Source of the DNA: an uncultured bacterium
GTDB taxonomy: Bacteria; Krumholzibacteriota; Krumholzibacteriia; Krumholzibacteriales; Krumholzibacteriaceae
NCBI GenBank assembly: GCA_964599375.1
Contig: CAZREW010000015.1
Location: forward strand, 10,028 to 74,027
DNA length: 64,000 nucleotides
Direction: 5' to 3'
Part shown: in pieces, positions 7,612-62,964 of the stretch
Position numbering within the stretch: the first letter of the stretch is position 1
Layout: the number at the start of each line of letters is the position of its first letter
The notes under the pieces: model-generated
Database searches by the model: none
What the model saw: only the letters and a program-made list of their open reading frames with translations
Told to the model about the DNA's origin: nothing
Position numbers and translations under genes: made by a program

Positions 7612-10304
7612 GCGAGATCCTCCAGAATCCGTTCCAGCCTCCTCCTGCGGTCTTCCATCTCCCCGAACCTCTCCCTTTCCCTCGCCACGACATCCGCCGG
7701 AGCCCGCCGGGTGAATTTTTCATCCTCGAGCCGCTTCCCTATCTTAGCGCATTCCACCCCGAGTTTCTCTATCTCCTTGGTGAAACGCTCCCTTTCGGCG
7801 CCGAGATCGACGATCCCTCCGAGGGGCACGTAGATCTCCAGGCGGGTCAGGCCGGCCGCGGCGCTTCCCGCCGGTTTCTCCGCCCCGTCCTCCACGACGA
7901 GGTCTCCGATCCCGGCCATCCCCATGATCTGGCTCTCGAACCTTCCGATACCGGCGCAGAGGCCAGACCCCTGCTCAGTATTGATCACTACTGACAATTC
8001 CTTCTGGTAAGGGATGTTGAAGCTCTGCCTGATATTCCTTATCGCCGTGACTATCTCCATCATGAGCGATACGTCCGCGTCGAGCTCCGCGTCGCGCATA
8101 CCGGCCGGCTTCCCCCTGAAGTGGAAACCTGCCAGGAGCGGGGCCCCGGGCGAGAGCATGCTCCAGATCTCCTCGCTTATGAACGGCATGACCGGATGCA
8201 GCATCACCATCGAGGCTCCGAGGACGGTGCGCGCGGTAAGCGCGGCGCCCCCTGCCCTGTCGCCGCCGCCGCGCAGCGCCGGCTTCGAGAACTCGAGGTA
8301 CCAGTCACAGAACTCGTGCCAGAAGAACTCGTATATCGTCCTGGCGGCATCGTCGAACCTGTACGATCCGATGGCCACAGAGTATTCCTCCATCCTCGCC
8401 GCGAGCCTGCTCGCGATCCAGTGGTCCTCCCAGCCGGTTTCGAAGCTACCCGAAGGCGGAGCGCCGTAGAGTATCTCGAAGAGGCCCGTCATACAGTCCG
8501 GATCGCTCCGCAGGCCGCCTCCCGCGAAGAGGCTCTCTCCCTCCTCCTGCGAGAGGACGAACCTCGCCGCGTTCCAGATCTTGTTGGCGAAATGCTGCCC
8601 CACCTCGACCTTCTTCTCGTCAAAGAGAAGGTCCTGACCGGGGGGGGAGAGCATCATCAGGGAGAAGCGGAACGCGTCCGCCCCGTGCCTGTCGATGATA
8701 TCTATCATATCGGGGGAATTGCCGAGGGACTTGCTCATCTTGCGTCCCTGTGCGTCCCTTACGATCCCCGTGATATAGACGTCGGAGAAAGGGATCTCTT
8801 CCATGAACTCTATCGATGCCATGATCATCCTGGCGACCCAGAAGAATATTATGTCCCCGCCGGTGACGAGCACGTCGGTGGGATGGAACTTCCGCAGCTC
8901 CGCAGTCTGATCCGGCCACCCCATCGGGGAGAAGGTCCAGAGCCAGGAGGAGAACCAGGTGTCGAGGACGTCCTCGTCCTGCCTTAAATCCTTCGATCCG
9001 CAGGCTGCGCACTCCGACGGGTCCTCGCGGGCCACCATCTCGACGCCGCAGGCACCGCAGTACCAGACCGGTATCCTGTGGCCCCACCAGAGCTGTCGCG
9101 ATATGCACCAGTCCCTGATACCCTCCATCCAGCTCAGGTAGATGTTCCTCCACCTCTCGGGGAAGAAGACCGTCTCGCCTTCCTTCACAGAGGCTATCGC
9201 CGGGGCGGCGAGGCTCTCCATCCTGAGGAACCACTGCTTCGAGACGTACGGCTCGATCACATTGCCGCACCGGTCGTGATGCCCGACCGCGTGGCGATAG
9301 TCCTCGGTCTTTCTGAGCAGCCCCTGTTTTTCCAGCTCGCCGAGAACGGCTTTCCTCGCGGCGGATATGTCCATGCCGGTGAAATCACCGGCCTGTTCGT
9401 TCATCATCCCGTCCGAGCCGATCACGACGAACGGGTCGAGGCCGTGCCTCAGCCCGATCTCGAAATCGGTTGCGTCATGGGCGGGCGTGACCTTGAGGAA
9501 ACCGGTCCCGAACTCGGGATCGACCGCCTCGTCGAGTATGACCGGTATCTCGCGCCCCGTGAGCGGCAGGCGCACCATCCTGCCCTCGAGCCCCTTCGCC
9601 CTTTCGTGCAGCGGGCTCATAGCGACCGCCACGTCGCCGAGCATCGTCTCGGGCCTCGTCGTCCCGACGACTACCTCCCCGGTGCCGTCCGCGAAAGGGT
9701 ACGCGATATACCAGAGCTTCGAGTCCTCCTCGCGGAACTCGACTTCCTCGTCGCTGATCGCCGTGCCGCAGCGCGGGCACCAGTTGACTATGTACCGCCC
9801 CCGGTAGATCAGGCCCTTCTCGTGAAGCCGGACGAAGACTTCGCGCACCGCCCTTGAGACTCCCGGGTCGAGCGTGAACACCTCGCGCGACCAGTCGAGC
9901 GAGGCGCCGAGGCGGCCGAGCTGCTCGACTATCCTTCCATGGTAAAGTTCCTTCCATCTCCAGCATTCCTCGAGAAACTTCTCCCTGCCCAGCTCTATCC
10001 GGGACGTCCCGCGCTCGGCGAGAGAGCGTTCGACGACGTTCTGAGTGGCGATCCCGGCATGATCGGTCCCGCTCTGCCAGAGGACCTCGTGTCCGGTCAT
10101 CCTCTTCCACCTGCACAGGATATCCTGGACGGTGGTTCCGAGAGCGTGGCCGACGGTGAGCATGCCGGTGACGTTCGGAGGAGGCAGTATTATGCAATAT
10201 CCTGGGTCGGGGGAAGCCGGGTCGGCCTTGAAGATGCCCGCGCCGGACCACGCCCCGCTCCATCTCTTCTCTATATCACCTGGTTTGTAGACCTTCTCGA
10301 GCAT
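7608..10304 (-). CDS. valS: Valine--tRNA ligase
   Basis: PPPNVTG..GH, WCISRQLWWGHRIP, DVLDTWFSS, KMSKSLGN motifs; C-terminal coiled coil. Start set at MLEKVY (10304). Confidence 0.99.
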   Translation of the reverse strand: MLEKVYKPGDIEKRWSGAWSGAGIFKADPASPDPGYCIILPPPNVTGMLTVGHALGTTVQDILCRWKRMTGHEVLWQSGTDHAGIATQNVVERSLAERGTSRIELGREKFLEECWRWKELYHGRIVEQLGRLGASLDWSREVFTLDPGVSRAVREVFVRLHEKGLIYRGRYIVNWCPRCGTAISDEEVEFREEDSKLWYIAYPFADGTGEVVVGTTRPETMLGDVAVAMSPLHERAKGLEGRMVRLPLTGREIPVILDEAVDPEFGTGFLKVTPAHDATDFEIGLRHGLDPFVVIGSDGMMNEQAGDFTGMDISAARKAVLGELEKQGLLRKTEDYRHAVGHHDRCGNVIEPYVSKQWFLRMESLAAPAIASVKEGETVFFPERWRNIYLSWMEGIRDWCISRQLWWGHRIPVWYCGACGVEMVAREDPSECAACGSKDLRQDEDVLDTWFSSWLWTFSPMGWPDQTAELRKFHPTDVLVTGGDIIFFWVARMIMASIEFMEEIPFSDVYITGIVRDAQGRKMSKSLGNSPDMIDIIDRHGADAFRFSLMMLSPPGQDLLFDEKKVEVGQHFANKIWNAARFVLSQEEGESLFAGGGLRSDPDCMTGLFEILYGAPPSGSFETGWEDHWIASRLAARMEEYSVAIGSYRFDDAARTIYEFFWHEFCDWYLEFSKPALRGGGDRAGGAALTARTVLGASMVMLHPVMPFISEEIWSMLSPGAPLLAGFHFRGKPAGMRDAELDADVSLMMEIVTAIRNIRQSFNIPYQKELSVVINTEQGSGLCAGIGRFESQIMGMAGIGDLVVEDGAEKPAGSAAAGLTRLEIYVPLGGIVDLGAERERFTKEIEKLGVECAKIGKRLEDEKFTRRAPADVVARERERFGEMEDRRRRLERILEDLA

Positions 10305-10378
10305 CCCTTCTCCTCGCCGCTTGGCCTGCTGTCCTCGGGAATATATCAATCTAACACAGCTTACGGCACCGGTCAATA

Positions 10379-11200
10379 TCAGCCCCGGAGGGAGAACCAT
10401 ATAAAGGCCACCGTGCCCGCCGGGATAAGATACCAGGAGAACCGGTAGAACCTTCCCCTCTGGAGTATCCAGACGAGCAGCCTCAGGGCCGCGTATCCGC
10501 TCGCGAACGCCACTATCGCTGAGACGGCCATGACCGCCACCTCGCCCCCCGCCATCCCCGGCCCCTCCGATACCGTCTCCAGCAGGAGGGCGCCCAGGAT
10601 CGCCGGGATGGAGAGCAGGAACGAGAATTCGGCCGCAGCCGAGAAACCGAGGCCGCAGACCATCGCAGCCGTTATCGTAAACCCGCTTCTAGAGCAGCCC
10701 GGGAGGATCGCCACAGCCTGCGCCAGACCGATGACCACGGCCGTCTTCCACCCCATGCCCCAGGCGCCGCTCCTTCCCCTTGCGAGCAGGAGGAAGAGCC
10801 CGGTGGCCACAAGGCAGGCCGAGGCGAGCAGCGGCGACCCGAACGCTTCGGTCACCAGCCCTCGGAGGCCGAGCCCTACGGCCGCGGCCGGTATCGATCC
10901 GAGCGCGAGATATCCGATGTAGGTCATATCGTCCCCGACCGGACCCGCGGCCCTGAACCCGGAGCCGGCCCACGCGAATGTCGACCTGGCCAGGGAGGCG
11001 ATGCGGCTGCGGTAGTAGAGGATGACCGCGCCCAGTGTGCCGGCGTGCACCGCCGTCTCGAAGATGACGTCTTCTCCCGTGTTTCCGACACCGAGAAGGG
11101 CACCGCCGATTACAAGGTGCCCCGATGAGCTGACCGGCAGGAACTCCGTTATCCCCTGCACGATCGCCAGTATGAGCATTGATACCAGTCCGCCATGCAT
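10379..11200 (-). CDS. uppP: Undecaprenyl-diphosphate phosphatase (BacA/UppP)
   Basis: QGITEFLPVSSSGH, AQAVAILPGCSRSG, AAEFSFLLSIPA motifs. True start may be 11179. Confidence 0.95.
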   Translation of the reverse strand: MHGGLVSMLILAIVQGITEFLPVSSSGHLVIGGALLGVGNTGEDVIFETAVHAGTLGAVILYYRSRIASLARSTFAWAGSGFRAAGPVGDDMTYIGYLALGSIPAAAVGLGLRGLVTEAFGSPLLASACLVATGLFLLLARGRSGAWGMGWKTAVVIGLAQAVAILPGCSRSGFTITAAMVCGLGFSAAAEFSFLLSIPAILGALLLETVSEGPGMAGGEVAVMAVSAIVAFASGYAALRLLVWILQRGRFYRFSWYLIPAGTVAFIWFSLRG

Positions 11201-12052: not shown

Positions 12053-13587
12053 CAGAAATCCCAGACGAATGAGAGGTGACCGAATCCCTCGTCCATGTCA
12101 TCGCCGCCGCCCGAGGCGGAGGCGTATCCCGCCGCCGCCTCGATGAACGACCCGTGCCCGAGATCGACATTCAGAGCGGCGCAGAAGGTCCGCTCGTTTT
12201 TGACTTCGCCGCTCGGGAACGGAGGATCTGGATCTTCTCCCCAGTCCCATTGCCGCATGTCGCTTCCCTCACCTCTGCGTACCCACGTCCCCTCGACCGA
12301 GAGCAGCGCCCTCGGATGCAGAGGCGTGGAGACCCTCAGCGACCATCTGTCGGCGTCGGGGCCGAGCATGTCCCCGATGATCCTGCCGGCCTTCTTCCCG
12401 CCGTCCCCGGTGACGTAGGCTGTCAGGATGCTGTCCTTGTGGGAGTATGTGTAGATACCGATCCTCGTGTACGAAGCCCGCAATCCGACATCGTGCCCCC
12501 AGGGTGTCACGAGCGCGTCGGCGCCGACCGTCCAGCCGAGCTTGTCCGGCGCCGGCGGATCACTCTCGTACTGGACGTCGTCCATCAGCAGCTCGCCAGA
12601 GATGACGAGCCCCCTTGTGACCGGTACCTTGATGTCGGCCGACCAGAGGATGTTGTCGTCCTCTTTCTCGCTGTACTGGTTGGCGTAGAAAGCGCCGAAG
12701 GGGACGAGGTATGCCCAGTCGAGATCCCTGCCTGTATACAGCACTGTCTCGCTTATCCCCGCGTATATCCTCGCCGGCAGCCTGATCTCGAGCCTGTGCC
12801 CGGCGAGCCTGCGCGGCGCGTACGGGTCGAGCATCGCCTGGAACATCCTCAGCGTGAACCTTCCCATCGATATGTCGAAGGCGATATGGTCGTGCGAACC
12901 GGAGGTCGACGACATGAGCAGGCCGCCTGGCCCCTGCGGGCCCCACTGGATGTAGTCCCTGCCGAGCTGCAGCCTCCACCTGCTCCCCGCGAACGCCACA
13001 TACCCGCGCTCGTATTCGAATGTCAGGCCGCGCCAGCTCCTTACCCTGTCGAGTTCCTCCTCCCTCTCCCTTTCCGGACCCGTCATCAGCACATAATCGG
13101 TCTCGAATGTGACTGCGCTCCCCATGCCGAGAAGGAATGTCGGGATAAGGAGCCCGTTCGCCTCTGCGTCGCCGTCCTCCTCGGCCCGCTTGACGAGCGA
13201 GCCGCCCGCTGCGAGGTCGATCGTGAAAAAACGCCTTCCCTCCCTCAAGGTCCAGAGCGGGCCGTCCTCCCTCTCTTCAGGTGAGTTTTCCATCCCCTGG
13301 AATTCCTCCCTGAGCCGCCCGAGGATGAACTCCTGGCGCGGCGTGAGAACCACGCACCCACCCTTCATCGACTGCATTATGCGATCGACGTACGCCTCGA
13401 CTTCCGATCTCGAGTAAGGGGACGCGGGATCGAGGGCGACCAGCCCGAGTGTCTCGAACGTCCTGAGCGCGGGATATATCCAGCTTCGCGGTGGTATCGT
13501 CTCGTCCGAGCAGAATGACGCCGAAGGCGCCAGCAGCAGGGCGGCCGCGACGAATATTGCTGCGGGGATCGATCTGCGGGGCGTCAT
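12052..13587 (-). CDS. Capsule assembly Wzi-family outer-membrane protein
   Basis: Signal peptide (MTPRRSIPAAIFVAAALLL), N-terminal helical segment (WIYPALRTFETLG), GRDYIQWG, LAGHRLE, GPDAD motifs, alternating beta strands, terminal Phe. Start at the ATGA overlap, 13587. Confidence 0.7.
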   Translation of the reverse strand: MTPRRSIPAAIFVAAALLLAPSASFCSDETIPPRSWIYPALRTFETLGLVALDPASPYSRSEVEAYVDRIMQSMKGGCVVLTPRQEFILGRLREEFQGMENSPEEREDGPLWTLREGRRFFTIDLAAGGSLVKRAEEDGDAEANGLLIPTFLLGMGSAVTFETDYVLMTGPEREREEELDRVRSWRGLTFEYERGYVAFAGSRWRLQLGRDYIQWGPQGPGGLLMSSTSGSHDHIAFDISMGRFTLRMFQAMLDPYAPRRLAGHRLEIRLPARIYAGISETVLYTGRDLDWAYLVPFGAFYANQYSEKEDDNILWSADIKVPVTRGLVISGELLMDDVQYESDPPAPDKLGWTVGADALVTPWGHDVGLRASYTRIGIYTYSHKDSILTAYVTGDGGKKAGRIIGDMLGPDADRWSLRVSTPLHPRALLSVEGTWVRRGEGSDMRQWDWGEDPDPPFPSGEVKNERTFCAALNVDLGHGSFIEAAAGYASASGGGDDMDEGFGHLSFVWDF

Positions 13588-14741
13588 TCGGCGGGCTGTC
13601 CCTGTTCCCCGGCGGTCACTTGTGATGCGCCGGCTGCCAAGCGGTAGCACTCGCTCGCCTTTCTCTTGTCGTCCTGCTTCTCGTACGAGATGCCGAGACC
13701 GAAATAGACCTTGGAGTCGTCGGGATTGATCTCGGTCACCTTCCTGAAATATTCCTGGGCCTTCTGCGGCTGCTCCAGCCTGTTGAAGCACTCGCCCACG
13801 TAGTAGAGTATCGTCGCGTTGCCTGGGTTGAGCCTGGCGGCCTGCTCGAGATGCTTGAGAGACTTGCCGTAGACTCCCTTGCGGTAATATATGAAACCGA
13901 GGTAGAAGAGAGCGTTCACGTTGTCGCCCTCCAGCTTCAGGATCTTCCTGAACTCGGCCGCCGCGTCGTCGTAGAGATTCTCGTTTATAAGCGCGAGGCC
14001 GAGGTTGTAATGTCCCTCGACCGAAGAAGGATCTATCTCCAGCCCGATCCTGAACTCCTTGATCGCCTGTTCCTTGTCGCCTTCCTCTCCATACAGCGCG
14101 CCGAGGTTGAAGTGCGCCTCGGCGTTGCGGGGGTTGTGCTGCACCGCCTTGCGGAACTGCTGAAGTGCGGCGCTGCGACGGCCCTCGAGATCAAGGATGT
14201 AGCCGAGGTTGGTATACGATTTCGAATGGGTCGGATCGGTGGCTATGGCCTGCCTGTACATCCTCTCGGCCTCGCCGTACCTGCGGCTTTTCGTATATGC
14301 CACTCCGAGCCGGTAATAGCATTCCGGATTGTCGGGCTCCCTCTCGATCGCCCTCATGTGGAACCCGATCGCCTCGTCGAACCGTCCCTGCAGCTCGAGG
14401 AGCCTGCCCATCCTGTAGAGGGGGAGAGCGTCGCCATCGCTCATCGCGTCGATCCGCCTGTAACCCTCGAGTGCCAGCTCGTACTTTCCGATCCTTTCGA
14501 ACATATTGCATGCCTCCAGGATCTCCTCTTCGTCGGCGTCCGTGCTTACTATAACGTCGCGAAGGCAGGCCTCTGCCCTCGGGCTGTTTCTCTTGCGCAG
14601 ATAGAGTTCCGCGAGCTCGAGGACTTCCTCGACATCAGCCTCGCCGAGGGAGGATTTCTTTCTCAGGCGGGCGATCTCCCTGCTCTCTTCCCGCACCTCA
14701 CCCCTGGTGAACTCGAGAAGCTTCTCCCATCGCAGGCCCAT
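13584..14741 (-). CDS. Tetratricopeptide-repeat protein
   Basis: About 9 tandem 34-aa TPR units (e.g. YYRLGVAY, AHFNLGALY, GHYNLGLAL). No signal peptide. Confidence 0.9.
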   Translation of the reverse strand: MGLRWEKLLEFTRGEVREESREIARLRKKSSLGEADVEEVLELAELYLRKRNSPRAEACLRDVIVSTDADEEEILEACNMFERIGKYELALEGYRRIDAMSDGDALPLYRMGRLLELQGRFDEAIGFHMRAIEREPDNPECYYRLGVAYTKSRRYGEAERMYRQAIATDPTHSKSYTNLGYILDLEGRRSAALQQFRKAVQHNPRNAEAHFNLGALYGEEGDKEQAIKEFRIGLEIDPSSVEGHYNLGLALINENLYDDAAAEFRKILKLEGDNVNALFYLGFIYYRKGVYGKSLKHLEQAARLNPGNATILYYVGECFNRLEQPQKAQEYFRKVTEINPDDSKVYFGLGISYEKQDDKRKASECYRLAAGASQVTAGEQGQPAE

Positions 14742-14787
14742 ACGCTACCCCCTGAAGATGATCCGGTCGTTGCATGCTCCCGGCAAC

Positions 14788-14817
14788 AGGCTAGAACAGG
14801 CCCCTGCCGCCTGTCAA
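14788..14817 (-). promoter_or_regulatory. Putative sigma70 promoter of the TPR-wzi-ubiA-uppP run
   Basis: Minus strand TTGACA (14817-14812), 18-nt spacer, TAGCCT (14793-14788). Confidence 0.5.
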
Positions 14818-14862
14818 GTATCATCGGGGCTGTATTTTACGGAAAGTCTGAAAGGCTTCGGA

Positions 14863-15333
14863 TCAGAATCCGAAGCCGCGCCTCGAATAGTAGGGGTTGA
14901 GATAGTTGCCCTGCGAGTACTGCAGCCTGACCATCAGGTTCTCGCTCGGTTTCCAGGTGACGTTTAAGTCCGGGATCATCACCTGGTAGCCGTTCATGCC
15001 ATCGCCGCCCATCATGTACGAGCCCACTCCGACATCCCAGTTTAGCGTGACGGAGCCGCCCATCTGATAGCTGAAGTGGCCCATGTAGTATCCCATGCCG
15101 ACGTCGCCGAATCCCTTCGACGAAGCGTAAGAGAATCCTACTGAGCTGTGGAAGTTCAGGCCGGGTATCCTGAGAAAGCCCGCTCCGGGGTCTACCGGAT
15201 TGAGATAGTCATCGAACACGCTCCGCTCGGGCGCGGGAGTCGTCACGGTCTGCTGCGCCACTGCGGAAGCTGCCAGCAGAGCGATGGCTGTCATCAACGC
15301 AATAGCGGATGTGATTCTTCTCATGATGCTCAC
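14863..15333 (-). CDS. Secreted beta-strand-rich hypothetical protein
   Basis: Sec signal peptide ending AVA-Q; several amphipathic Tyr/Gly-rich strands; terminal Phe. Start may be 15324. Confidence 0.7.
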   Translation of the reverse strand: MSIMRRITSAIALMTAIALLAASAVAQQTVTTPAPERSVFDDYLNPVDPGAGFLRIPGLNFHSSVGFSYASSKGFGDVGMGYYMGHFSYQMGGSVTLNWDVGVGSYMMGGDGMNGYQVMIPDLNVTWKPSENLMVRLQYSQGNYLNPYYSRRGFGF

Positions 15334-15338
15334 CCGGC

Positions 15339-15692
15339 TTACCCGCCGAGAAGTTCCCTGATCTTTTCCTTGAGGGGAGTGAGGTCCACGGACTTCACTA
15401 TATAGGCCTCGGCGGCCCAGGTCTTAAAGTTGTCCTTGAAGTCCGAATAGGCCGAATTGATTATCACCGGAAGATCCTTGCGGCGCTCGACTGTCATTAT
15501 CAGCGCGTCAATCCCGCTCTCGTCGCCGAGCTTCATGTCGAGGATCATCAGGTCCGGCGATTCCTTCTCGACGGACTCCAGCGCTTCAGCCACAGTCCCA
15601 GCCGATACCGTCTCATACCCCTCGCGACGCAACTCCTCGCTGTAGAGCTTCCTTACATTTATCTCGTCGTCTACTATAAGGATCTTTGCCAT
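15339..15692 (-). CDS. Single-domain response regulator (CheY-like receiver)
   Basis: KILIVDDE, PDLMILD (phospho-Asp), INSAY and VKS (conserved Lys); 117 aa with no output domain. Confidence 0.92.
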   Translation of the reverse strand: MAKILIVDDEINVRKLYSEELRREGYETVSAGTVAEALESVEKESPDLMILDMKLGDESGIDALIMTVERRKDLPVIINSAYSDFKDNFKTWAAEAYIVKSVDLTPLKEKIRELLGG

Positions 15693-15795
15693 CGGCTCCC
15701 CCGAATAAAAAACCGCGATTCAGCCGAATCCCGGTTCTATCATCGCCATAATTTGTACACCGGTCAAGTTCTTTTGTTCCGCCGGAGAGGTGAGA

Positions 15796-16953
15796 TCAGC
15801 CCGCATGGACCTTGATGTCGAGTATTACCTTTATAGGCACCTCGCTGCGGATCTCCTCCTCTGAAAGTTCGATCGGGACCGTGACCATCTTCGAGGGGCG
15901 TTCCTTGTTCTTCTCGGCCGAAACGGGCCCCTCGTCAGCGGCCACCTCCGGCTTTTCCTCCGGCAGATTGACGAGCGGATCGTTTATAAATCCTTCTTCT
16001 TTCTTCCCATGCGCCTCTACTACCTCCTGAGCCACAGCGACGCTGGATTTTACCTCCGCTTCCTGTCCCGCAGGTTCCCGGCCGTTGTCTCCGAGCTCGA
16101 CCATGTGCCCGTACTCCTCGTACCCTTCCCGAGCCATGCCGAGATCCTCGGCAGATTCTTTCTCACCCTCGGTCAGCACGTGATCGACAAACTCAGAGAC
16201 AGACTCGTGCTCCTCTTCTCTCTCCTCTGCGTAACCTGAAGTCTCGCTCTCGCCTGCCTCTGAGTCAATGCCCTTTGCCGCGCCCTGCGCTACTACCTCT
16301 GCGTCGACCAGTCCTTCGTCCTTGCCGCTTTTCTTACCCTCTTCCTTTCCGGCCTTGATGTCCTTGAGCTCACACCTGAGCTGCTTGAAGACCAGCTTGG
16401 CTATACCCTCGAATGTCTCGTACACCCCTCTGCCGTCGGTGGCCACGGCCTCGAACGAGGGGACTTTCCATTCGGAGTTAAGCCCCGCGTCGAGCTTCTT
16501 CCTGTCCATGCATCCCGGCACGTCCCTCTTGTTGTACTGCATCACCCAAGGGGTCCCGGAAAGTGACATCCCGATCTCATTGAGGTTCTCCTCGAGGTTA
16601 CTGAGGCTCTCGATATCGTCCTCCAGCCTGTCCGGGGAGGAATCAGCCACGAACACAAGGGCATCCACACCCTTGAGCACCAGCTTTCTGGTCGCGTTGT
16701 AATAGACCTGTCCGGGGACCGTATAAAGAAGGAACCTTACCTTGAGGCCGCCGAGTTCGCCGACCTCGATCGGAAGGAAGTCAAAAAAGAGCGTCCTGTC
16801 CGTACGCGTCTTCATCGAAACCATCTTGCCCTTGTTCTCGCGCGGGAGCTTGGAATACATGTACTCGAGGTTCGTAGTCTTACCGCTGAGCCCCGGGCCA
16901 TAATATACGATCTTAATGTTAACTTCTCCGCCTGCGTAGTTATAGACAGCCAT
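15796..16953 (-). CDS. mglA: MglA-family small Ras-like GTPase with ~190-aa acidic C-terminal extension
   Basis: KIVYYGPGLSGKTTNL, RTLFFDFLP, LYTVPGQVYYNATRKLVLKGVD, FVADS and QYNKRD motifs. Start at MAVYNY (16953) behind an AAGGAG RBS. Confidence 0.9.
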   Translation of the reverse strand: MAVYNYAGGEVNIKIVYYGPGLSGKTTNLEYMYSKLPRENKGKMVSMKTRTDRTLFFDFLPIEVGELGGLKVRFLLYTVPGQVYYNATRKLVLKGVDALVFVADSSPDRLEDDIESLSNLEENLNEIGMSLSGTPWVMQYNKRDVPGCMDRKKLDAGLNSEWKVPSFEAVATDGRGVYETFEGIAKLVFKQLRCELKDIKAGKEEGKKSGKDEGLVDAEVVAQGAAKGIDSEAGESETSGYAEEREEEHESVSEFVDHVLTEGEKESAEDLGMAREGYEEYGHMVELGDNGREPAGQEAEVKSSVAVAQEVVEAHGKKEEGFINDPLVNLPEEKPEVAADEGPVSAEKNKERPSKMVTVPIELSEEEIRSEVPIKVILDIKVHAG

Positions 16954-17198
16954 TATCAGCCACTCCTTGAAAAAGCCGGGGCGGGCTCCCGACCCGCTCA
17001 CCTGGTGCTGAAGACAAGGAAGCAGAATCCGGAGCAGGCGATACGTCACTTGAGCTAGGGTGTTCACTTCGTGATTCAAATGGAAGCGCCAACCCCGGCA
17101 GAGGGACAGAACCGCAAGTAACGTGCCACTGAAACATTATCAGCAGCATTTTTAACCCACTGTGAAAACGATGTTTAGGAAGGGTTACGCGATGTATG

Positions 17199-17231
17199 AA
17201 AAAAGTCCTCTCCCTGAAAATGAGAGAGGAC
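17199..17231 (-). terminator. Intrinsic terminator after the lipoprotein gene
   Basis: GTCCTCTC (17205-17212) / GAGAGGAC (17224-17231) stem, followed by T6 on the minus strand. Confidence 0.75.
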
Positions 17232-17275
17232 GACGTAAACTGCAAGTTACACTTTGCTGCCGTCGGCTGGAGACG

Positions 17276-17620
17276 TCAATCCGAACATTCGTGGCCGTCG
17301 CAGCTGTAAGTAAGGCTTTTCGTGCTGCCGTCAGAGACGGTCACCTGATCCGTCCAGCAGAAATATGCATTGCCGATCTTGGCGTTGCTGGCCATATAAA
17401 GATCATATGTCCCTGCCGCCAGCGGGAAGAAAGCGGGCTCCTCGGAAGAAGCGAGGCCCTGGTACTCGCCATCGACGAAGACCCACACGCCGAAGGAAAG
17501 GCAATCCGTGTAATTGAGCCTTATGCCCGTGGGTGCGACTTCGGTGCTGTTGTCTGAGCATCCTGCCAGCAGCACCGGCATCAGGGCCAGTACGAATATA
17601 ACGGCACCGAGCTGCCTCAT
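17276..17620 (-). CDS. Small Cys-containing lipoprotein, hypothetical
   Basis: Lipobox LLAG-C after a hydrophobic signal; short beta-sandwich (WVFVDGEYQG, GTYDLY), loosely PEGA-like; 3 further Cys. Confidence 0.7.
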   Translation of the reverse strand: MRQLGAVIFVLALMPVLLAGCSDNSTEVAPTGIRLNYTDCLSFGVWVFVDGEYQGLASSEEPAFFPLAAGTYDLYMASNAKIGNAYFCWTDQVTVSDGSTKSLTYSCDGHECSD

Positions 17621-17732
17621 CTGAACCTCCCTTTACAGTATTAAAGCCGGTCACCGGGCACTCCGGGGCCCCCGACCTGAAGGAAATCTAACAAATGAGA
17701 GGCGGAGCGACAAGTGAAAAACGGGCGGTCGG

Positions 17733-18209
17733 TCAGGCCTTCTGGAGCCTGGACCCGCACCAGGGGCAGAAATTGAACCTTTCGCTCACAGTGTGCCCGC
17801 AACCGCAGGGAACCTCCGGACCCTCGTCCTTTTCCCCTTCGGAAGAGACTGAGCTGAAGCAGTTTTTCTTGAGCTGGTCGTAGAGTTCCTGGGCCTTAGG
17901 CAGGACGAACTCGTAATCCCTTCCAGAGCAGACTATCACGCGGGGATGGAGGTCGCCTCCCTCGATGCGTACGTCATCGACAGTCGCGAGGTCGATCGAT
18001 ACACCTCTCATCCCGAAGGACGAATCGAGATGGGACACCTGGAAGTTAAGCCGGCAGTCGGTCATCTCGAGAACGCCCCGGGCTGCGATCAGGCGGCTGA
18101 CGTAGTATATCGCTTTTTGCATGAAAAGAGTCTTTTCCGTGCATACCTGCAACGTTTTACCTCCATCGATAGTATGTGCCTGATCTTTGCCAGAACCGTG
18201 CCATTTCAA
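17733..18209 (-). CDS. Hypothetical protein: PH/GRAM-like domain plus C-terminal zinc ribbon
   Basis: GVLEMTDCRLNF...SIDLATVDDV resembles a PH/GRAM fold; C-terminal CGCG...FNFCPWCGSRL zinc ribbon. Start uncertain. Confidence 0.6.
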   Translation of the reverse strand: MKWHGSGKDQAHTIDGGKTLQVCTEKTLFMQKAIYYVSRLIAARGVLEMTDCRLNFQVSHLDSSFGMRGVSIDLATVDDVRIEGGDLHPRVIVCSGRDYEFVLPKAQELYDQLKKNCFSSVSSEGEKDEGPEVPCGCGHTVSERFNFCPWCGSRLQKA

Positions 18210-18213
18210 AGGC

Positions 18214-18243
18214 TTGACAGCCCGCTGAACCGGGGAATATCCT
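18214..18243 (+). promoter_or_regulatory. Putative sigma70 promoter of the acyltransferase-GT4-MFS operon
   Basis: TTGACA (18214-18219), 18-nt spacer, TATCCT (18238-18243), just before the start codon. Confidence 0.55.
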
Positions 18244-18253
18244 CTTTGATGTT

Positions 18254-19105
18254 GTGAAAATGACGGGGAATACAGTATTCAGGTTCACGGCAGCCGTCCT
18301 TGACACGCTTCCCGGACGGATCCGAAGTATCGCCGCCGACGTCTCGGCCCTGGGTTGTTTCTGCCTCTCCCCGGGCAAGAGACGCAATGTGCGTCGCAAT
18401 CTCTCCATAGTGGGCGCTCCGCGCTCCCGAGGCGAAGTGCTGAGCGTCTTCAGGATTCATTCGATGAACATGATCGAGATGTTCGCCTCTTCGAGATGGG
18501 AAGAGGAGGAGATAACCGGCCGCATCGATTTCCCTCAGAGGCGCATGCTCGACGAAGCGCTCGCCGCCGGCAGGGGGGCTATCCTCGCAACGGCCCATAT
18601 CGGCAACTGGGAGCTTCCCGCTCTTCTTCTCGGCTCGCAGGGGTACCGGCTCAGCGTAGTGGCAGGCGAACAGATGAACTCCATCCTCACCGGCTCCCTG
18701 AAACGCGCCAAGGAAGCCAGGGGGATAGAGGTCATCGGCCCCGATCAGCCCTACAGGAGACTCTACCGGATCCTCAGGGACGGCGGCATAGTAGCCCTGC
18801 TCCTGGACGGGGACATCTTCGAGGGCGGTATCCCGATCGAGCTCTTCGGAAGGCAGGTCAACCTTCCGCGGGGGGCCGCGAGGCTCGCCATGAGCACCGG
18901 CGCGCCGGTGCTCGGCGCGTTTTGCAGGAGGATCAGCGACGACAGGTCGAGGATCACAATGGAGACGCTCCTGGGACCCACAGAGGCCGGGCGCATAGGC
19001 GAGACCGCTTCCCAGGACAGGATATTCCCGGCGATCGAGAGGTACATCCGCGAAAACGCTGACCAGTGGTGCATATTCAGGAGCTTCTGGGAGGGCGTCG
19101 CATGA
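18254..19105 (+). CDS. LpxL/PatA-family lysophospholipid acyltransferase
   Basis: ATAHIGNWEL acyltransferase motif; VALLLDGD, FGR..LPRGAARLAMSTGAPV and PDQW-like (ADQWCIF) C-terminus. Confidence 0.85.
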   Translation: MKMTGNTVFRFTAAVLDTLPGRIRSIAADVSALGCFCLSPGKRRNVRRNLSIVGAPRSRGEVLSVFRIHSMNMIEMFASSRWEEEEITGRIDFPQRRMLDEALAAGRGAILATAHIGNWELPALLLGSQGYRLSVVAGEQMNSILTGSLKRAKEARGIEVIGPDQPYRRLYRILRDGGIVALLLDGDIFEGGIPIELFGRQVNLPRGAARLAMSTGAPVLGAFCRRISDDRSRITMETLLGPTEAGRIGETASQDRIFPAIERYIRENADQWCIFRSFWEGVA

Positions 19106-20265
19106 AGATAGGGATCGTGACGCAGTCGTATTACCCCAAACCCGGCGGGGTCACCGAGGTCGTGCATCATACGGCCGCCGAGCTGCGTCGGCTGGGGCAT
19201 GATGTCACGATCATCACGACGAGGTACGGTCCCGGCAGGCAGAAGGAGCCCGGAGTAATAAGGATCGGGCGGAATGTCCTCTTTCCGGCAAACGGAGCAT
19301 GGACCAACGTGACGGCTGGCTGGAGGCTCCGCCACCAGCTCGAGGAGATATTCCGCAGGGAGAGTTTCGACATAATCCAGACCCACTGCCCTCTCGTGCC
19401 CACGCTTCCGGCCCTTACCCTTCTCGCCGACAGGCATGGAGCGAGACTCGTCGGCACCTTCCATGCCGCGGCCGACAGTAACTTCCTGTACGCACTCCTG
19501 CGCCCGCTGATCGAGTGGGGAGCCCGGAACCTCGACCACAGGATAGCGGTCTCAGGGCCCTGCAGGGATTTCAACGCAAAATACTTTCCGGGTTTTTACG
19601 AGATAATCCCGAACGGGATAGACTCTAAGCGGTTCCGTCCCGGCATCCCCCCGATCGAGGGACTCCGAGACGGAAAGCTCAACATCCTTTTCGTCGGAAG
19701 GATGGACAGACGCAAGGGCCTGCCCTACCTCTTCAAGGCACTGCCTCTGATCCAGCGATCGATCCCGCGCCTTGTCAGGCTGATCCTGGTCGGCGAGGGA
19801 AACCTGCGACGCAAAGTGATGCCGAGACCTATAAGCCTCGGCGGCGCGGAGATAATGGCCGTAGGGCGTGTCGACGCCGGGCTGCTGCCGAGCTACTACG
19901 CCTCTTCCGATATCTTCTGCGCTCCCGCCACGGGCAGAGAGAGCTTCGGAATAGTCCTTCTTGAGGCGATGGCCGCCGGCGTCCCCATAGTCGCCTCGGA
20001 CATCCCCGGTTTCAGCAAGGTGATCACGAGGGGAAAAGACGGCATTCTCACCGCCCCCGGGTCCCCCGCGGAATTGGCCGACGCGGTCGCCAGGATAGCC
20101 TCCGATCCCGGGATGGCGGCGAGGATGTCAGCCCTGGGGCGCCAGAAGGCCATATCCTACGACTGGGGATCGATCACCGCCAGGCTGGAAGAGAGCTTCC
20201 TGAGGGTCCTCACGGAAGGACCGGGGACGGCCGCACAGAGCAGGGAAAAGGCGGAGGTCCGATGA
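19102..20265 (+). CDS. GT4 glycosyltransferase, PimA-like
   Basis: MKIGIV..PGGV, FVGRMDRRKGL and APATGRESFGIVLLEAMAAGVPIVASDIPGF motifs. ATG at 19102 overlaps the upstream stop. Confidence 0.88.
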   Translation: MKIGIVTQSYYPKPGGVTEVVHHTAAELRRLGHDVTIITTRYGPGRQKEPGVIRIGRNVLFPANGAWTNVTAGWRLRHQLEEIFRRESFDIIQTHCPLVPTLPALTLLADRHGARLVGTFHAAADSNFLYALLRPLIEWGARNLDHRIAVSGPCRDFNAKYFPGFYEIIPNGIDSKRFRPGIPPIEGLRDGKLNILFVGRMDRRKGLPYLFKALPLIQRSIPRLVRLILVGEGNLRRKVMPRPISLGGAEIMAVGRVDAGLLPSYYASSDIFCAPATGRESFGIVLLEAMAAGVPIVASDIPGFSKVITRGKDGILTAPGSPAELADAVARIASDPGMAARMSALGRQKAISYDWGSITARLEESFLRVLTEGPGTAAQSREKAEVR

Positions 20266-21542
20266 AGGACCGAGGAGCCGGGAAGGAACGAAACGGCGAG
20301 GCGGCGGCAGTGGCGATATCGGGCGCCCTGCTTTCAGCGTTCTGGGCCGCACAGGCTGTATCGCTGTTCGGTGACAGGCTCAACAACTTCTCCCTCGTGG
20401 CTCTGGTGAACAGGTTCTCGAAAGATCCATCGCTTCAGCTCTCGGGTATATACGCGGCGATGTATCTGCCCGTCTTCCTTCTCGCCCCGGCGGCTGGAGT
20501 AGTCGTAGACAGATTGAACAAGAGATGGGTGCTTGCCGCGACTGACCTGGCGCGTGGTCTCCTCGTGCTGCTCATACCGGCGGCGTTCGCCGCGACCGGG
20601 AGCTTCATCCCTGTCATGGCGGTCGTCTTCCTCGTCGCATCCGGCAATCTTCTTTTCCTTCCAGCAAAATCCGGCTTCCTCCCCGAGATCGTCCCGCCCG
20701 AAAAGCTGGTCCGCGTGAACTCGATACTCTGGATCGCGGGGATCGCCGGAGTCATCGGAGGGTTCCTCGGCGGTGGTATCATCTTCGACTATTTTTCTTG
20801 GAAGGCATGCTTCTATCTCGACGGGGCTACCTATCTCATCTCCGCCTCGCTGCTGACTGCCATCGCGCTGCGGCTCCCACGCGGGCCGCAGCCCGCGCCA
20901 CGGGCGGGCCCGGCCGGGGAGTCCGCGCTCGCTGGATTCTGGCGCTCCGCCGCCGAGGGCCTTGCCGAGATAAGGGGCAACCGTTCTCTTGCCGCCCCGC
21001 TGGTCGTGCAGTCGCTGATATTTTTCGGCGCCGGCGGGTTCTCTGTCCTCGCGGTGGTCATGATCGGAGGAGTCTCGAAAGAGGGCAGTTCGATGGGGCT
21101 CGCCGCCGCTGGACTTTCGGCCGGGGCAGGGATGGCCGCCGGGTCCCTGCTCGCGCACCGCCTGGGCCGGAACGCGGGGCGGCCGGCCGAGGGCGCGCTT
21201 TTTCTCCTGTTCGCCCCCGCGGCTGCGGCCGTAGCCCTCTCCTCCTCGCTCGCGCCGGTGTGCGTAGGGATGTTCACGGCCGGACTCGCGGCCACGCCGC
21301 TCTTCGTGATCTCGGAGTCCCAACTCCAGGAGAGGATACCGGAAGGCCTTCGGGGCCGGGTCTTCGCGCTCAGGGAGGTGCTGACCCGCAGCCTCTTCCT
21401 CGCATCCTCCTTTCTCATGAGTTTTCTTGGCAGAGCGACAGGTAAAGGAGCCCTGCTCATACTGCTTGGCCTTTTTCTTGCAATCTCAGGATTGATCCGT
21501 GTCTTTTTATCCGGGTCCACCGATACCGATAACGATAACTGA
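20262..21542 (+). CDS. MFS transporter (12 TM)
   Basis: MFS motif A (GVVVDRLNKRWVL), LQERIPEGLRGRVFA; translationally coupled to the GT4 gene. Confidence 0.88.
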   Translation: MKDRGAGKERNGEAAAVAISGALLSAFWAAQAVSLFGDRLNNFSLVALVNRFSKDPSLQLSGIYAAMYLPVFLLAPAAGVVVDRLNKRWVLAATDLARGLLVLLIPAAFAATGSFIPVMAVVFLVASGNLLFLPAKSGFLPEIVPPEKLVRVNSILWIAGIAGVIGGFLGGGIIFDYFSWKACFYLDGATYLISASLLTAIALRLPRGPQPAPRAGPAGESALAGFWRSAAEGLAEIRGNRSLAAPLVVQSLIFFGAGGFSVLAVVMIGGVSKEGSSMGLAAAGLSAGAGMAAGSLLAHRLGRNAGRPAEGALFLLFAPAAAAVALSSSLAPVCVGMFTAGLAATPLFVISESQLQERIPEGLRGRVFALREVLTRSLFLASSFLMSFLGRATGKGALLILLGLFLAISGLIRVFLSGSTDTDNDN

Positions 21543-21553
21543 CGGGAGTCGCA

Positions 21554-21994
21554 ATGGAGATCACCGAGAAGATCCTCAGGGAAGTCTTTCACCGCCTGGT
21601 CAACATGGAGCCCGAAGACGAAGTATTCGAGAGGCTCAACGGCGTGATAAACGGGATGATGGATAAGTTCCAGGACACATTCGATCTTGACACGGTGCAG
21701 AGACAGAACACGTTCCGGGCGATCATATGCTCGATGTTCGTGCACGGGTGGGGTATCGGGATGCATCCGTTCAACAATCCCGACAGGAACCTCGACGAGA
21801 GGCCGATCGAGGTCCGCGTCAGCAAGGATATCCTCATCCCGATGGAGAACATCAAGGCCCTTCGCTACGTCAAGAAGGACCAGGATGGCCGGGTCAAGAA
21901 GGTCCTCTTCGAACCTGACCAGAACGAGCGCATCCGGGGACAGATAGACAATCTGCTCGACAAGATAGCCGGCGAGAAGTGGGGCGAGAAATGA
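21554..21994 (+). CDS. Hypothetical soluble protein
   Basis: 146-aa ORF with a GGGAG RBS and normal codon pattern, filling the gap before the converging gene. No recognisable motif. Confidence 0.7.
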   Translation: MEITEKILREVFHRLVNMEPEDEVFERLNGVINGMMDKFQDTFDLDTVQRQNTFRAIICSMFVHGWGIGMHPFNNPDRNLDERPIEVRVSKDILIPMENIKALRYVKKDQDGRVKKVLFEPDQNERIRGQIDNLLDKIAGEKWGEK

Positions 21995-21996
21995 CC

Positions 21997-22815
21997 TTAT
22001 GAGTCATTGAGCTTCTCGAGCTCGATGAGCCTGCCGCCGTTCCTGAACTCGACCAGATCCATCAGTTCCTTAATCAGGTAGATCCCCCTGCCCGAGCCCT
22101 TGTAGATGTTCTCCTGCTCGGTGGGATCGGAGATCTCCTCCGGGATGAACCCCTCCCCCTCGTCCTCGATCTGGATGCGTATGCGGCTGCTGCTGATATA
22201 TACGCGGACCCTCACCTTGAGCTTCTCGTCAGACCTGTTGCCATGCACTATGGCGTTACTGAGCGCCTCGTCCACGACCATCGGCAGGTTGACTCTGCTC
22301 TCCTCGGGAGGGAACCCGAACTCGGCGGAAAGAAACGAGATGAGGCGGTTGACCCCGAGTATCCGGGACAGCTTGCTCGGAACGACGAAATCAAGCCTCA
22401 CGTGTCCTTCCCTTATCAGCTCGTTGTTTCTCGGGAACGGGATGCCGCGGTCGGCGGCGTGGCGAAGGACGCCCTGCGCGTCCGCCCTGCTGAAAGGCGG
22501 TGTGATTATACCGTCGATCCCCATCGATATGTACGTCAGGTAGGCCCTCTCGTCGCACTCGCCGGTCACGATATACAGCGGCGATTCGATCATCGACAGC
22601 CTGAGCTGCCTCGTCTTGCCAGGATCGAGCTTTCCGGAGGGTAGAAAGAGGAGCAGGTTGGGACAGCAGTCTCCCGCCGACTGCAGCGCCTTGAGGAACC
22701 TCGGGAATGTCTTGTACGCCTTTACCTCGACATCCTCCGGGAGGCGTGCCTCGGCAAAGAACTGGTCATGCAGCGCAGGCTGCAGATTGAGTATATACAA
22801 TGAAAGTCTGTTCAC
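21997..22815 (-). CDS. Pseudo-receiver fused to an RsbW-like anti-sigma/Ser kinase (HATPase_c_2) domain
   Basis: C-terminal VDEALSNAIVHGN, IEDEGEGF and GSGRGIYLIKELMD boxes. N-terminal alpha/beta receiver-like pattern without the acidic residues. Confidence 0.8.
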   Translation of the reverse strand: MNRLSLYILNLQPALHDQFFAEARLPEDVEVKAYKTFPRFLKALQSAGDCCPNLLLFLPSGKLDPGKTRQLRLSMIESPLYIVTGECDERAYLTYISMGIDGIITPPFSRADAQGVLRHAADRGIPFPRNNELIREGHVRLDFVVPSKLSRILGVNRLISFLSAEFGFPPEESRVNLPMVVDEALSNAIVHGNRSDEKLKVRVRVYISSSRIRIQIEDEGEGFIPEEISDPTEQENIYKGSGRGIYLIKELMDLVEFRNGGRLIELEKLNDS

Positions 22816-22831
22816 ATCCGCCCGGGTATCG

Positions 22832-23431
22832 TCAGAATACCTGCTGCCCGTCTGCGAGTATCTCGTTAAGCGCTGTACGGAAATACTCGCTCGATTCGGT
22901 CACTTCGGAACCGATCTTCTCCTTGTAAGCCTCCCAGGCCTTCTTTATCTCGGGGCCCAGCAAGGTCATCAGGTCACCGTTGGCGAGTCCGCGGTCGCGC
23001 TTCTCCTGGTTATACACCAGGATGTCGCTCACGAAGACACGGGCGAGCCTTTTCGCCCTCTCGCGTTTCTTCCTGATCTCGGGCGTCTCGACTACCGTCT
23101 CCACGACAGCCGGCTTCGCCTCGAAAGCCGCGTCGTTCCCGGAGATCTCAGCCTCTTCCTCTAAGATCGCGGATTCAGGCTGCGTCATCACAGCGGCCGC
23201 CCTGTGCTGCTCGGGAGCTCCCCATCCCCCGCTCACCTGAGCCTCGGCCAGCGGAACGCCCGTGGCGTACTCGTTGGTCGTGATCTCGATCCCGGCATCC
23301 AGAGCCGCCGGAGGCGGAGTGAGTCTCCATATGAACCGGCACTTAGGGCATCTGACCCTGATCCCCGCGGAGGGGACCTTCTCATCCCCGAGCATGTATT
23401 TCGTCTGGCATCCGTCACAGGTGACGATCAT
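22832..23431 (-). CDS. MJ0042-type zinc-ribbon protein with a C-terminal RomX-like domain
   Basis: N-terminal MIVTCDGCQTKY...KVP..GIRVRCPKC; Ala/Glu/Pro linker; C-terminal AKRLARVFVSDILVYNQEK...YFRTALNEIL helical domain. GGAGG RBS before 23431. Confidence 0.75.
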   Translation of the reverse strand: MIVTCDGCQTKYMLGDEKVPSAGIRVRCPKCRFIWRLTPPPAALDAGIEITTNEYATGVPLAEAQVSGGWGAPEQHRAAAVMTQPESAILEEEAEISGNDAAFEAKPAVVETVVETPEIRKKRERAKRLARVFVSDILVYNQEKRDRGLANGDLMTLLGPEIKKAWEAYKEKIGSEVTESSEYFRTALNEILADGQQVF

Positions 23432-58773: not shown

Positions 58774-58791
58774 ACTGCTTCGATCGAGGGG

Positions 58792-59508: not shown

Positions 59509-59512
59509 ATCT

Positions 59513-61981: not shown

Positions 61982-62054
61982 TAAACTCTCCTCTATCGAT
62001 ACAGGGGCATGCTACCTTACTGATTGTATCATTATCACATCAGCCCATAAAAGG

Positions 62055-62963: not shown

Positions 62964-62964
62964 C

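Follow-up and report, generated by a model that had tools for sequence, protein, structure and literature searches.

We analysed a stretch of 64,000 nucleotides from an uncultured member of the Krumholzibacteriaceae (GenBank assembly GCA_964599375.1, contig CAZREW010000015.1, positions 10,028 to 74,027 of the forward strand), which is referred to below as the window. Between positions 13,584 and 23,431 the window encodes a tailed MglA, a Ras-like GTPase, and a protein in which a zinc ribbon is joined to a domain resembling RomX of Myxococcus xanthus (ZnR-RomX). The same region encodes a tetratricopeptide repeat protein (TPR385), a kinase, a stand-alone receiver and a conserved 146-amino-acid protein (Unk146; Table 1). 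An earlier note on this DNA had named these genes except Unk146, and each of them was indeed present, all on the minus strand. The genes for ZnR-RomX, MglA and the TPR protein are clustered, and this clustering is conserved across phyla.

One genome per GTDB species was scanned, which yielded 416 relatives; the counts given below rest on the best 80 loci. The recovered loci all came from metagenome-assembled genomes, and the best 80 were labelled Krumholzibacteriota, Latescibacterota, Fibrobacteraceae, Chitinivibrionia and Eisenbacteria, with a few that were evidently mis-binned. Each locus was searched with the proteins of the window, and denominators are the evaluable loci. The zinc ribbon was fused to the RomX-like domain in 72 of 72 loci. 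An MglA-like gene was located on the same strand, at most 7.5 kb downstream of ZnR-RomX, in 49 of 50 loci, and it was followed by an orthologue of TPR385 in 47 of 48. Hence, the co-occurrence that the earlier note had proposed to check was confirmed for loci anchored on ZnR-RomX. Unk146 was found on the opposite strand in 62 of 67 loci and was missing only from Eisenbacteria-type loci. The kinase gene came directly after ZnR-RomX in 48 of 69 loci, and a stand-alone receiver gene followed MglA in 17 of 53, all of which belong to the clade that resembles the window.

In compact loci, among them L065, L073, L076, L078 and L083, the genes for ZnR-RomX, Unk146 (on the opposite strand), the GTPase and the TPR protein were arranged without any intervening genes. 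Other loci contained variable insertions, with genes for an acyltransferase, a family 4 glycosyltransferase (GT4), a major facilitator superfamily (MFS) transporter, HD and radical-SAM proteins, a lipoprotein, a PH-like/zinc-ribbon protein and small secreted proteins. The earlier note had remarked that the genes are not contiguous. This holds for the window, where ZnR-RomX and mglA are 5.9 kb apart, but not for the compact loci. Because the core genes are contiguous there, the comparison resolves the non-contiguity seen in the window. The functional link between ZnR-RomX, MglA and the TPR protein, which the earlier note had offered as an inference, is therefore stronger than its author thought, given the conserved cluster, the fusion proteins and the conserved binding residues described below. 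For the receiver, this link did not stand up.

Table 1. Genes and other features of the region, with the members of the conserved cluster listed first.
Feature	Coordinates	Strand	Remarks
ZnR-RomX-like protein, 199 aa	22832..23431	-	homologues start at MIVTCDGC
Unk146, conserved protein of 146 aa	21554..21994	+	convergent with the kinase gene
Tailed MglA, 385 aa from MAVYNY	15796..16953	-	G domain 16369-16953; acidic tail 15796-16368
TPR protein (TPR385), 385 aa	13584..14741	-	generic TPR matches only
RsbW/SpoIIAB-type kinase, 272 aa	21997..22815	-	16 nt downstream of ZnR-RomX
Intact stand-alone receiver, 117 aa	15339..15692	-	5 nt upstream of next gene
Secreted protein, 156 aa	14863..15333	-	translationally coupled to the receiver; signal peptide read from sequence
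Terminator-like hairpin, 10-bp stem and T run	17205..17231	-	upstream of mglA; consensus scan only
Small lipoprotein gene	17276-17620	-	upstream of mglA; lineage-specific
138-aa protein with C-terminal zinc ribbon	17733-18149	-	upstream of mglA; lineage-specific; weak DZR/Zn_ribbon matches
Acyltransferase, GT4 glycosyltransferase and MFS transporter	18254..21542	+	between kinase/Unk146 and mglA; absent from compact loci

ZnR-RomX consists of a zinc ribbon (residues 1-40, at approximately 23312-23431), an acidic disordered linker (44-112) and a helical bundle (117-199, at 22835-23083). Close homologues are labelled Candidatus Krumholzibacteria in the source databases, and they place the true start at ATG 23431, whereas the mechanical start of the open reading frame (ORF), GTG 23455, lies upstream. 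The N-terminus is an MJ0042-type zinc ribbon that matched Zn_ribbon_4 (PF13717, E=4e-13, above the cut-off) and TIGR02098 (E=3e-10), as well as the solved ribbons of GltJ (7zok, E=4e-6) and 2nb9 (E=2e-3). Its four cysteines (C5, C8, C28 and C31) were invariant in the homologues. The C-terminal 72 residues matched M. xanthus RomX (PDB 8zna) with E=6.5e-9 and 32% identity. In an AlphaFold2 model based on 24 homologues, residues 117-198 formed a helical bundle with a predicted local confidence (pLDDT) above 90. RomX 8zna, a three-helix bundle, was also the top fold match of this model among PDB structures in Foldseek, with a TM score of 0.73 normalised on RomX, a root-mean-square deviation of 2.1 Å and a probability of 1.00, but an E-value of only 1.5e-3; the zinc ribbons of ZitP and GltJ likewise appeared in the list. 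Hence, the RomX-like assignment made in the earlier note holds in sequence and predicted fold.

Helix 1 of RomX binds MglA only in its guanosine triphosphate (GTP) form; the R11A/R14A variant loses binding and D19A loses the exchange activity (10.1101/2024.02.20.581209). These three residues align to R128, R131 and D136 of ZnR-RomX, which were invariant in the 24 homologues. Among the best 150 representatives of the domain family, the equivalents of R14 and D19 were at least 90% conserved. RomX itself is defined as a small single-domain protein that occurs with RomR; here we found a 199-residue zinc-ribbon fusion and no RomR-like gene in the window. It is therefore more fitting to assign the domain to a RomX-like domain family than to call it a RomX orthologue.

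An exhaustive search with the 87-residue RomX-like domain retrieved 1,791 representatives (clusters at 50% identity) with E<=1e-3, and 625 with E<=1e-10. Among the best 150, Zn_ribbon_4 was present in 91, a receiver in 10, and an MglA G domain with three RomX-like repeats in one (P0223). Judging from these domain matches, the zinc-ribbon fusion is the main architecture of the family. When P0223 was used as the next query, 36 of the 53 long MglA-like proteins examined proved to have RomX-like domains at their C-terminus, in one to three copies. These MglA::RomX fusions have a length of 570-1197 amino acids and come from NCBI, JGI, ENA and Logan, on contigs of up to 233 kb. Because they occur in at least 36 protein clusters, from several sources and on long contigs, the fusion is not an assembly accident, and its existence indicates that MglA and RomX-like domains act together. 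The fusions combine the same two domains as the module in the window, joined by a long low-complexity linker, but they lack the zinc ribbon and are found in a different neighbourhood.

Three of the fusions (691-914 amino acids; L084 at 8001-10466, L085 at 8001-10745 and L086 at 8001-10076) share a neighbourhood that comprises PatA_N, PilZ, HEAT and HHH_5 proteins, a second short MglA-like GTPase, a coiled-coil protein and two ORFs of about 156 amino acids. Moreover, L086 and L084 adjoin magnetosome-type genes (MamI PF26391, trypsin-PDZ, cation-efflux/ZT_dimer and MreB-like_C), so that an MglA/RomX module may be linked to magnetosome gene clusters. Another metagenomic protein (P0121, 968 amino acids) contains a zinc ribbon, a receiver and five tandem RomX-like repeats, and several relatives of 750-990 amino acids carry three to five such repeats.

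Residues 1-193 of the MglA protein matched the solved MglA structures of Thermus thermophilus (3t12, E=1e-68) and M. xanthus (6hjh, E=7e-67), with 55% identity in an ungapped alignment. The P-loop GPGLSGKTT, R53 (in TDRTLFFDF) and T78 and Q82 (in LYTVPGQ) were kept in the window and invariant across three orthologues. By this similarity and these residues, the protein is classified as a bona fide MglA of the group 1 type. Homologues place its start at ATG 16953, downstream of the mechanical ORF start TTG 17079. Its acidic tail of 190 amino acids contains conserved short motifs and a C-terminal element (at approximately 15808-15888). Since the motifs EEHESVSEFVD.VL and REGYEEYGH.VEL and the C-terminal element are common to three Krumholzibacteria orthologues, the tail is not junk. 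The C-terminal element spans about 27 residues (x-V-P-V ... [IL][KR][IV].L[ED][IV].[IV]) and was found in 48 of the 57 complete GTPases of the cluster, degenerate ones included, and variants of it in most of the remaining complete sequences. This count was obtained with a loose pattern; strict regular expressions for the tail motifs under-counted.

Canonical MglA proteins (E below 1e-60) were present in 45 loci, with tails that bring their total length to 365-590 amino acids. In 17 other loci we found shorter, degenerate relatives that had lost the switch motifs and whose P-loop reads GKR in 12 loci and GK(T/S)ANL in five. The GKR-type relatives (L054, L065, L071-L073 and L076-L083) have 260-300 amino acids and are located about 0.8-1.1 kb downstream of ZnR-RomX. 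Their switch I and II motifs are gone and the NKxD motif is often altered, and they retain the C-terminal signature element and the ZnR-RomX, Unk146 and TPR neighbours. From their sequences, they are probably pseudo-GTPases. Overall, the shared element marks the GTPases of the cluster as a separate subfamily.

The RomX-like helix changed along with the GTPase. The residue equivalent to R11 was arginine in all 45 loci with a canonical MglA and in the five GK(T/S)ANL loci, and methionine in all 12 loci with a GKR P-loop. An arginine is thus gained in the nucleotide pocket and lost from the helix predicted to face it, a pattern that one would expect from direct contact between the two proteins.

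The TPR proteins encoded after MglA matched TPR385 with E-values from 1e-26 to 1e-172, compared with 1e-4 to 1e-22 for the same ORFs against the other TPR protein of the window. TPR385 is a candidate MglA effector or scaffold. The receiver matched Pfam Response_reg over its full length (PF00072, E=1e-19), and D8, D9, D52, S80 and K99, as read from its sequence, were intact. The earlier note was thus right that an intact single-domain receiver lies near mglA. By its distribution across the loci, the receiver is a lineage-specific accessory, and we rejected it as a core partner.

Unk146, which the parts list of the earlier note had missed, is in the window the last gene of the plus-strand unit that starts with the acyltransferase, GT4 and MFS genes. 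We found 223 homologues, with identities of 71-97% within Krumholzibacteria and 53-60% across phyla. The motifs QNTFRAL.CSM..HGWG.GMHP and LRYVKKD..GRV.K.LFEPDQN were invariant. On these alignments, Unk146 is the most conserved member of the module. Its AlphaFold2 model was poor (pLDDT 64.6), with the order helix-helix-helix-strand-strand-helix. We also considered whether Unk146 is a divergent MglB/Roadblock protein; this was unsupported, as there was no sequence match and the secondary-structure order of the poor model is unlike Roadblock. That Unk146 supplies the missing control of GTP hydrolysis or exchange is speculation.

The kinase gene is translationally coupled to ZnR-RomX, and its ORF begins within or beside the end of ZnR-RomX in every locus that carries it. 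The kinase domain matched HATPase_c_2 (PF13581, E=7e-21, above the cut-off) and RsbW (6m36, E=1e-7). Its ATP-binding boxes (N-box DEALSNAIVHGN, G1 EDEGEGF and G2 GSGRGIYLI) were intact and conserved in the orthologues. The N-terminal domain of about 130 residues had no match in Pfam and a weak hhalign match to the CheY/Spo0F/REC profile (E=0.007), in which T87 was kept, K109 was replaced (ITPPF) and no aspartate occupied the D57 position. The closest solved two-domain relative was PDB 9qih, named 'SenB' (E=2e-7), which matched the N-terminal domain in part; a literature search for this entry returned no paper on it, only unrelated SenB proteins. The earlier note had described a pseudo-receiver-RsbW kinase that is co-transcribed with ZnR-RomX. 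The kinase was as described, and the label pseudo-receiver is reasonable but not proven, with weak to moderate support from this alignment. The same note had linked the module to partner-switching. Only the RsbW-like kinase speaks for this link; no STAS, PP2C or sigma factor genes were found in the Pfam-scanned ORFs of the window or the annotated neighbourhoods L001-L003.

The Pfam scan of the major window ORFs revealed no Roadblock (MglB), RomR-type, type IV pilus or Glt domains, and none of the major ORFs combined a receiver with proline-rich and glutamate-rich regions as RomR does. A search with verified M. xanthus MglB (phmmer --max) returned only noise in the window and in 83 loci. Thus, the earlier note was correct that RomR and MglB are not visible here, and its proposed search for romR, mglB, type IV pilus and Glt genes gave none in the 64-kb window. 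An MglB gene within four genes is typical of MglA (390 of 449) but not obligatory, and 59 'orphan' MglAs without coupled MglB, as well as group 1 MglA in Fibrobacteres, were already listed by Wuichet and Sogaard-Andersen in 2014 (PMC4316618). The orphans include the MglA of Bdellovibrio bacteriovorus (PMC4316618).

The region resembles the M. xanthus module in several respects. It encodes a group 1-type MglA with R53, T78 and Q82 and a RomX-like helix 1 with the equivalents of R11, R14 and D19; a receiver-like domain is encoded beside the RomX-like gene, and the TPR protein is a likely effector, as SgmX is. In contrast to M. xanthus, the window has no MglB or RomR nearby, and its RomX-like domain is not a free protein of 89 amino acids but the C-terminus of a zinc-ribbon protein without the W87 region. 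Furthermore, its receiver-like partner is a putative pseudo-receiver fused to an RsbW-type kinase, its MglA has a tail of 190 amino acids with a conserved C-terminal element, Unk146 is added, and the carriers are uncultured phyla. By definition, the RomR-RomX/MglB system has a coupled MglB, RomR, a free small RomX and the W87 interface; none of these was found here, so the region does not belong to that system. The earlier note had taken it as established that RomR-RomX is the guanine nucleotide exchange factor (GEF) of MglA. This is contested by Dinet et al. (2026), according to whom RomRX is an effector of MglA-GTP and not a GEF (PMC13408092).

Other known systems share parts of this arrangement. 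GltJ, a protein of the M. xanthus gliding machinery, also combines an MJ0042-type zinc ribbon with a flexible linker and reads MglA-GTP. Its zinc ribbon binds the adjacent linker, not MglA, and is freed by MglA-GTP to recruit MglB (PMC11135422). In GltJ it is the linker that binds MglA-GTP, whereas in ZnR-RomX the RomX-like domain is the likely reader; moreover, ZnR-RomX lacks the GYF domain and the membrane anchor of GltJ, and there is no MglB. The kinase shares the HATPase_c_2 fold and the intact N, G1 and G2 boxes with RsbW/SpoIIAB kinases, but it is fused to a putative N-terminal pseudo-receiver, and no STAS antagonist, PP2C or sigma factor gene is nearby. The orphan MglA of Bdellovibrio, like that of the window, has a TPR partner and no coupled MglB. 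Work by Milner et al. in 2014 reportedly placed it with the TPR protein Bd2492 and RomR. It is untailed and keeps RomR, whereas the MglA of the window is tailed and has no RomR nearby. A P-loop substitution in the Bdellovibrio protein is said to lock the GTP form, and the MglA of the window keeps G21. We know of no ZnR-RomX fusion or Unk146 in Bdellovibrio.

We consider it fairly probable that a conserved MglA module underlies the region and has been elaborated in this lineage. The module would comprise four genes, for a ZnR-RomX adaptor, Unk146, a tailed MglA and a TPR protein, and it occurs in candidate phyla that we assign to the FCB (Fibrobacteres-Chlorobi-Bacteroidetes) group. These genes have remained associated in several poorly known phyla, and the set is therefore probably a variant form of the polarity switch known from Myxococcus. 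In such a module, MglA would cycle between its guanosine diphosphate (GDP) and GTP forms, for which the catalytic residues R53, T78 and Q82 and the P-loop are intact. Helix 1 of the RomX-like domain would bind MglA-GTP via its Arg-x-x-Arg...Asp face, as the mutagenesis of M. xanthus RomX suggests. By analogy with GltJ and ZitP, the zinc ribbon and the conserved motifs in the linker may tether this complex at a further site or to a further partner. The TPR protein, whose gene follows mglA directly, would be an effector or scaffold, and may dock on the short motifs in the MglA tail. The RomX-like domain would have the pseudo-receiver/RsbW-like kinase as its partner in Krumholzibacteria, Latescibacterota and some Fibrobacterota; this pair would be the counterpart of RomX with the RomR receiver, and would give phosphorylation or sequestration as output. 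In the clade of the window, the intact receiver would add a two-component (phosphorylation) input. With no MglB nearby, the GTPase-activating protein (GAP) activity would have to be supplied elsewhere in the genome, by Unk146 or by the tail in cis, which is speculative. As its output, the module could define a pole or site for motility, the envelope or division.

Several observations weigh against this interpretation. No motility, pilus, Glt or secretion genes were found in the 64-kb window, and nothing in the analysis shows polarity, pili or secretion, which the earlier note had suggested as the output. The kinase and the receiver were absent from many loci, and Unk146 had no match in Pfam, NCBIfam or PDB and no Foldseek relative. 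Helix 3 of RomX binds the receiver of RomR via L75/R76, and W87 inserts into the interface (10.1101/2024.02.20.581209). In ZnR-RomX, the equivalents of L75/R76 are ambiguous and none is possible for W87, because the match to RomX extends no further than its position 76, with about six residues left in the protein (ADGQQVF). Contact of the RomX-like domain with the pseudo-receiver is therefore analogy only. In the acidic patch of MglA that was modelled as the RomX contact (E108, E111 and E115), D108 and E115 were invariant and position 111 varied. Furthermore, the change from arginine to methionine probably reflects one clade and one evolutionary event, so that it counts as a single observation and not as a statistic. 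Finally, recG was syntenic with ZnR-RomX in 44 of 46 loci and ftsZ was also nearby, which implies that deep synteny explains part of the co-localisation.

This last point can be carried further. The synteny may be conserved without any common function, as a slowly rearranging ancient block that runs from the division and cell wall (dcw) cluster, ftsZ and recG to a Wzi-like gene, with a role of ZnR-RomX that is unrelated to MglA. The chromosome block as a whole is unusually stable, with RecG upstream in nearly all loci and FtsZ and the 545-residue TPR protein upstream in most. The 5.9 kb between ZnR-RomX and mglA in the window contains unrelated genes, and three Krumholzibacteria contigs, whose ZnR-RomX is 57-58% identical to that of the window, have the same gene order over the whole region, which alone cannot separate function from inherited synteny. 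However, MFS, GT4, acyltransferase, HD and radical-SAM genes are gained or lost from locus to locus, whereas the four core genes are retained and come to lie side by side. In addition, the MglA-binding residues are conserved, the two domains are fused in 36 protein clusters, and the arginine of the helix covaries with the GTPase P-loop. On balance, we regard synteny without common function as the least likely of the explanations weighed here. It is also improbable that ZnR-RomX and the kinase serve mainly in partner-switching or anti-sigma control of transcription. There, the RsbW-like protein would act by sequestering a sigma factor or by phosphorylating a STAS protein encoded elsewhere, with MglA as no more than an input. 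Such a role would fit the HATPase_c_2 and RsbW/SpoIIAB matches, the intact ATP-binding boxes and the translational coupling of the kinase to ZnR-RomX in 48 of 69 loci, but not the lack of STAS, PP2C and sigma factor genes in the window and loci. Moreover, the kinase is missing from compact and Eisenbacteria-type loci that keep ZnR-RomX, MglA and the TPR protein, which implies that it is accessory and not core.

A third alternative accepts a true MglA switch, but one that positions the cell-division or envelope machinery instead of a motility machinery. In most loci, ftsZ and the dcw cluster are found on one side and genes for a Wzi-like outer-membrane protein, glycolipids and polysaccharides on the other, and neither pilus nor Glt genes were found in the window. 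A location beside housekeeping clusters provides little evidence, though, and to our knowledge every characterised group 1 MglA acts on motility or invasion poles (see also PMC4316618). We consider this alternative unlikely, yet rank it ahead of the other two. Somewhat more plausible, but still doubtful, is a broader version of the four-gene module: an MglA switch free of MglB and RomR, with ZnR-RomX as reader, Unk146 (which would then be a new fold) or the tail element as GAP or GEF and the TPR protein as output. Such a switch would be ancestral to the candidate phyla of the FCB group and widespread among them. If this is true, RomX-like domains are general and ancient readers of MglA-GTP, and RomR-RomX is a myxobacterial specialisation.

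The earlier note had presented the system as a candidate for an undescribed polarity switch, and this needs to be qualified. Group 1 MglA in Fibrobacteres and the orphan MglAs were on record, as mentioned above, and Chakraborty & Gayathri reported that Foldseek matches to the RomX fold often occur with a receiver or a 'zinc finger/thioredoxin putative' domain (10.1101/2024.02.20.581209). Hence, the association of zinc ribbons with the RomX fold and the presence of MglA in Fibrobacteres are already known. Our literature search returned no work linking MglA to Krumholzibacteria, Latescibacteria or Eisenbacteria, and no published account of the four-gene cluster, the tailed-MglA signature, the 146-residue family, the pseudo-receiver kinase partner, the abundant MglA::RomX fusions or the covariation. 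MglA is the best-studied bacterial Ras-like polarity GTPase, and nearly all mechanistic work comes from one organism. That a RomX-like domain accompanies MglA without RomR or MglB points to the reading of MglA-GTP as the core role of the fold, independent of RomR. The module also yields three candidate components (the conserved Unk146, the C-terminal signature element of MglA and the pseudo-receiver/RsbW-type kinase), and it offers a natural comparison of canonical with degenerate GKR GTPases that have the matching change in the RomX-like helix. These ideas are directly testable if the module is present in culturable relatives such as Fibrobacter or Chitinivibrio.

The 64-kb window is ordinary chromosome, with approximately 61% G+C. 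The module is flanked on one side by groES/EL, birA, nadC, uvrB, valS and a gene for a Wzi-like outer-membrane protein, and on the other side by recG, a radical-SAM gene, a TPR gene, ftsZ, ftsA and the entire dcw cluster to mraZ, beyond which a polysaccharide cluster follows. Upstream of mglA, the terminator-like hairpin suggests that mglA has its own transcript start. The lipoprotein gene and the gene of the 138-residue zinc-ribbon protein 5' of mglA were found only in the window-like clade, and the gene of the secreted 156-residue protein only in window-like loci. By eye, the N-terminal region of the 138-residue protein is PH/GRAM-like. The lipid A-type acyltransferase (PF03279), GT4 and MFS genes form an overlapping operon that is inserted in some lineages and absent in others, and they are probably cargo unrelated to the module. 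The acyltransferase/GT4 pair is presumably comparable to the actinobacterial PatA-PimA glycolipid pair. The 545-residue TPR protein (28161-29798, minus strand) is encoded immediately 3' of ftsZ, a position that is kept in most related loci across phyla, and it may be a division-associated candidate. At the far end of the window, a long one-strand cluster for polysaccharide or glycoconjugate biosynthesis (46790-64000, minus strand) contains genes for a methyltransferase, PMT_2, GT4, a flippase, GNAT, Polysacc_synt_2, several family 2 and family 1 glycosyltransferases (GT2 and GT1), a YfhO-like protein and Reg_prop.

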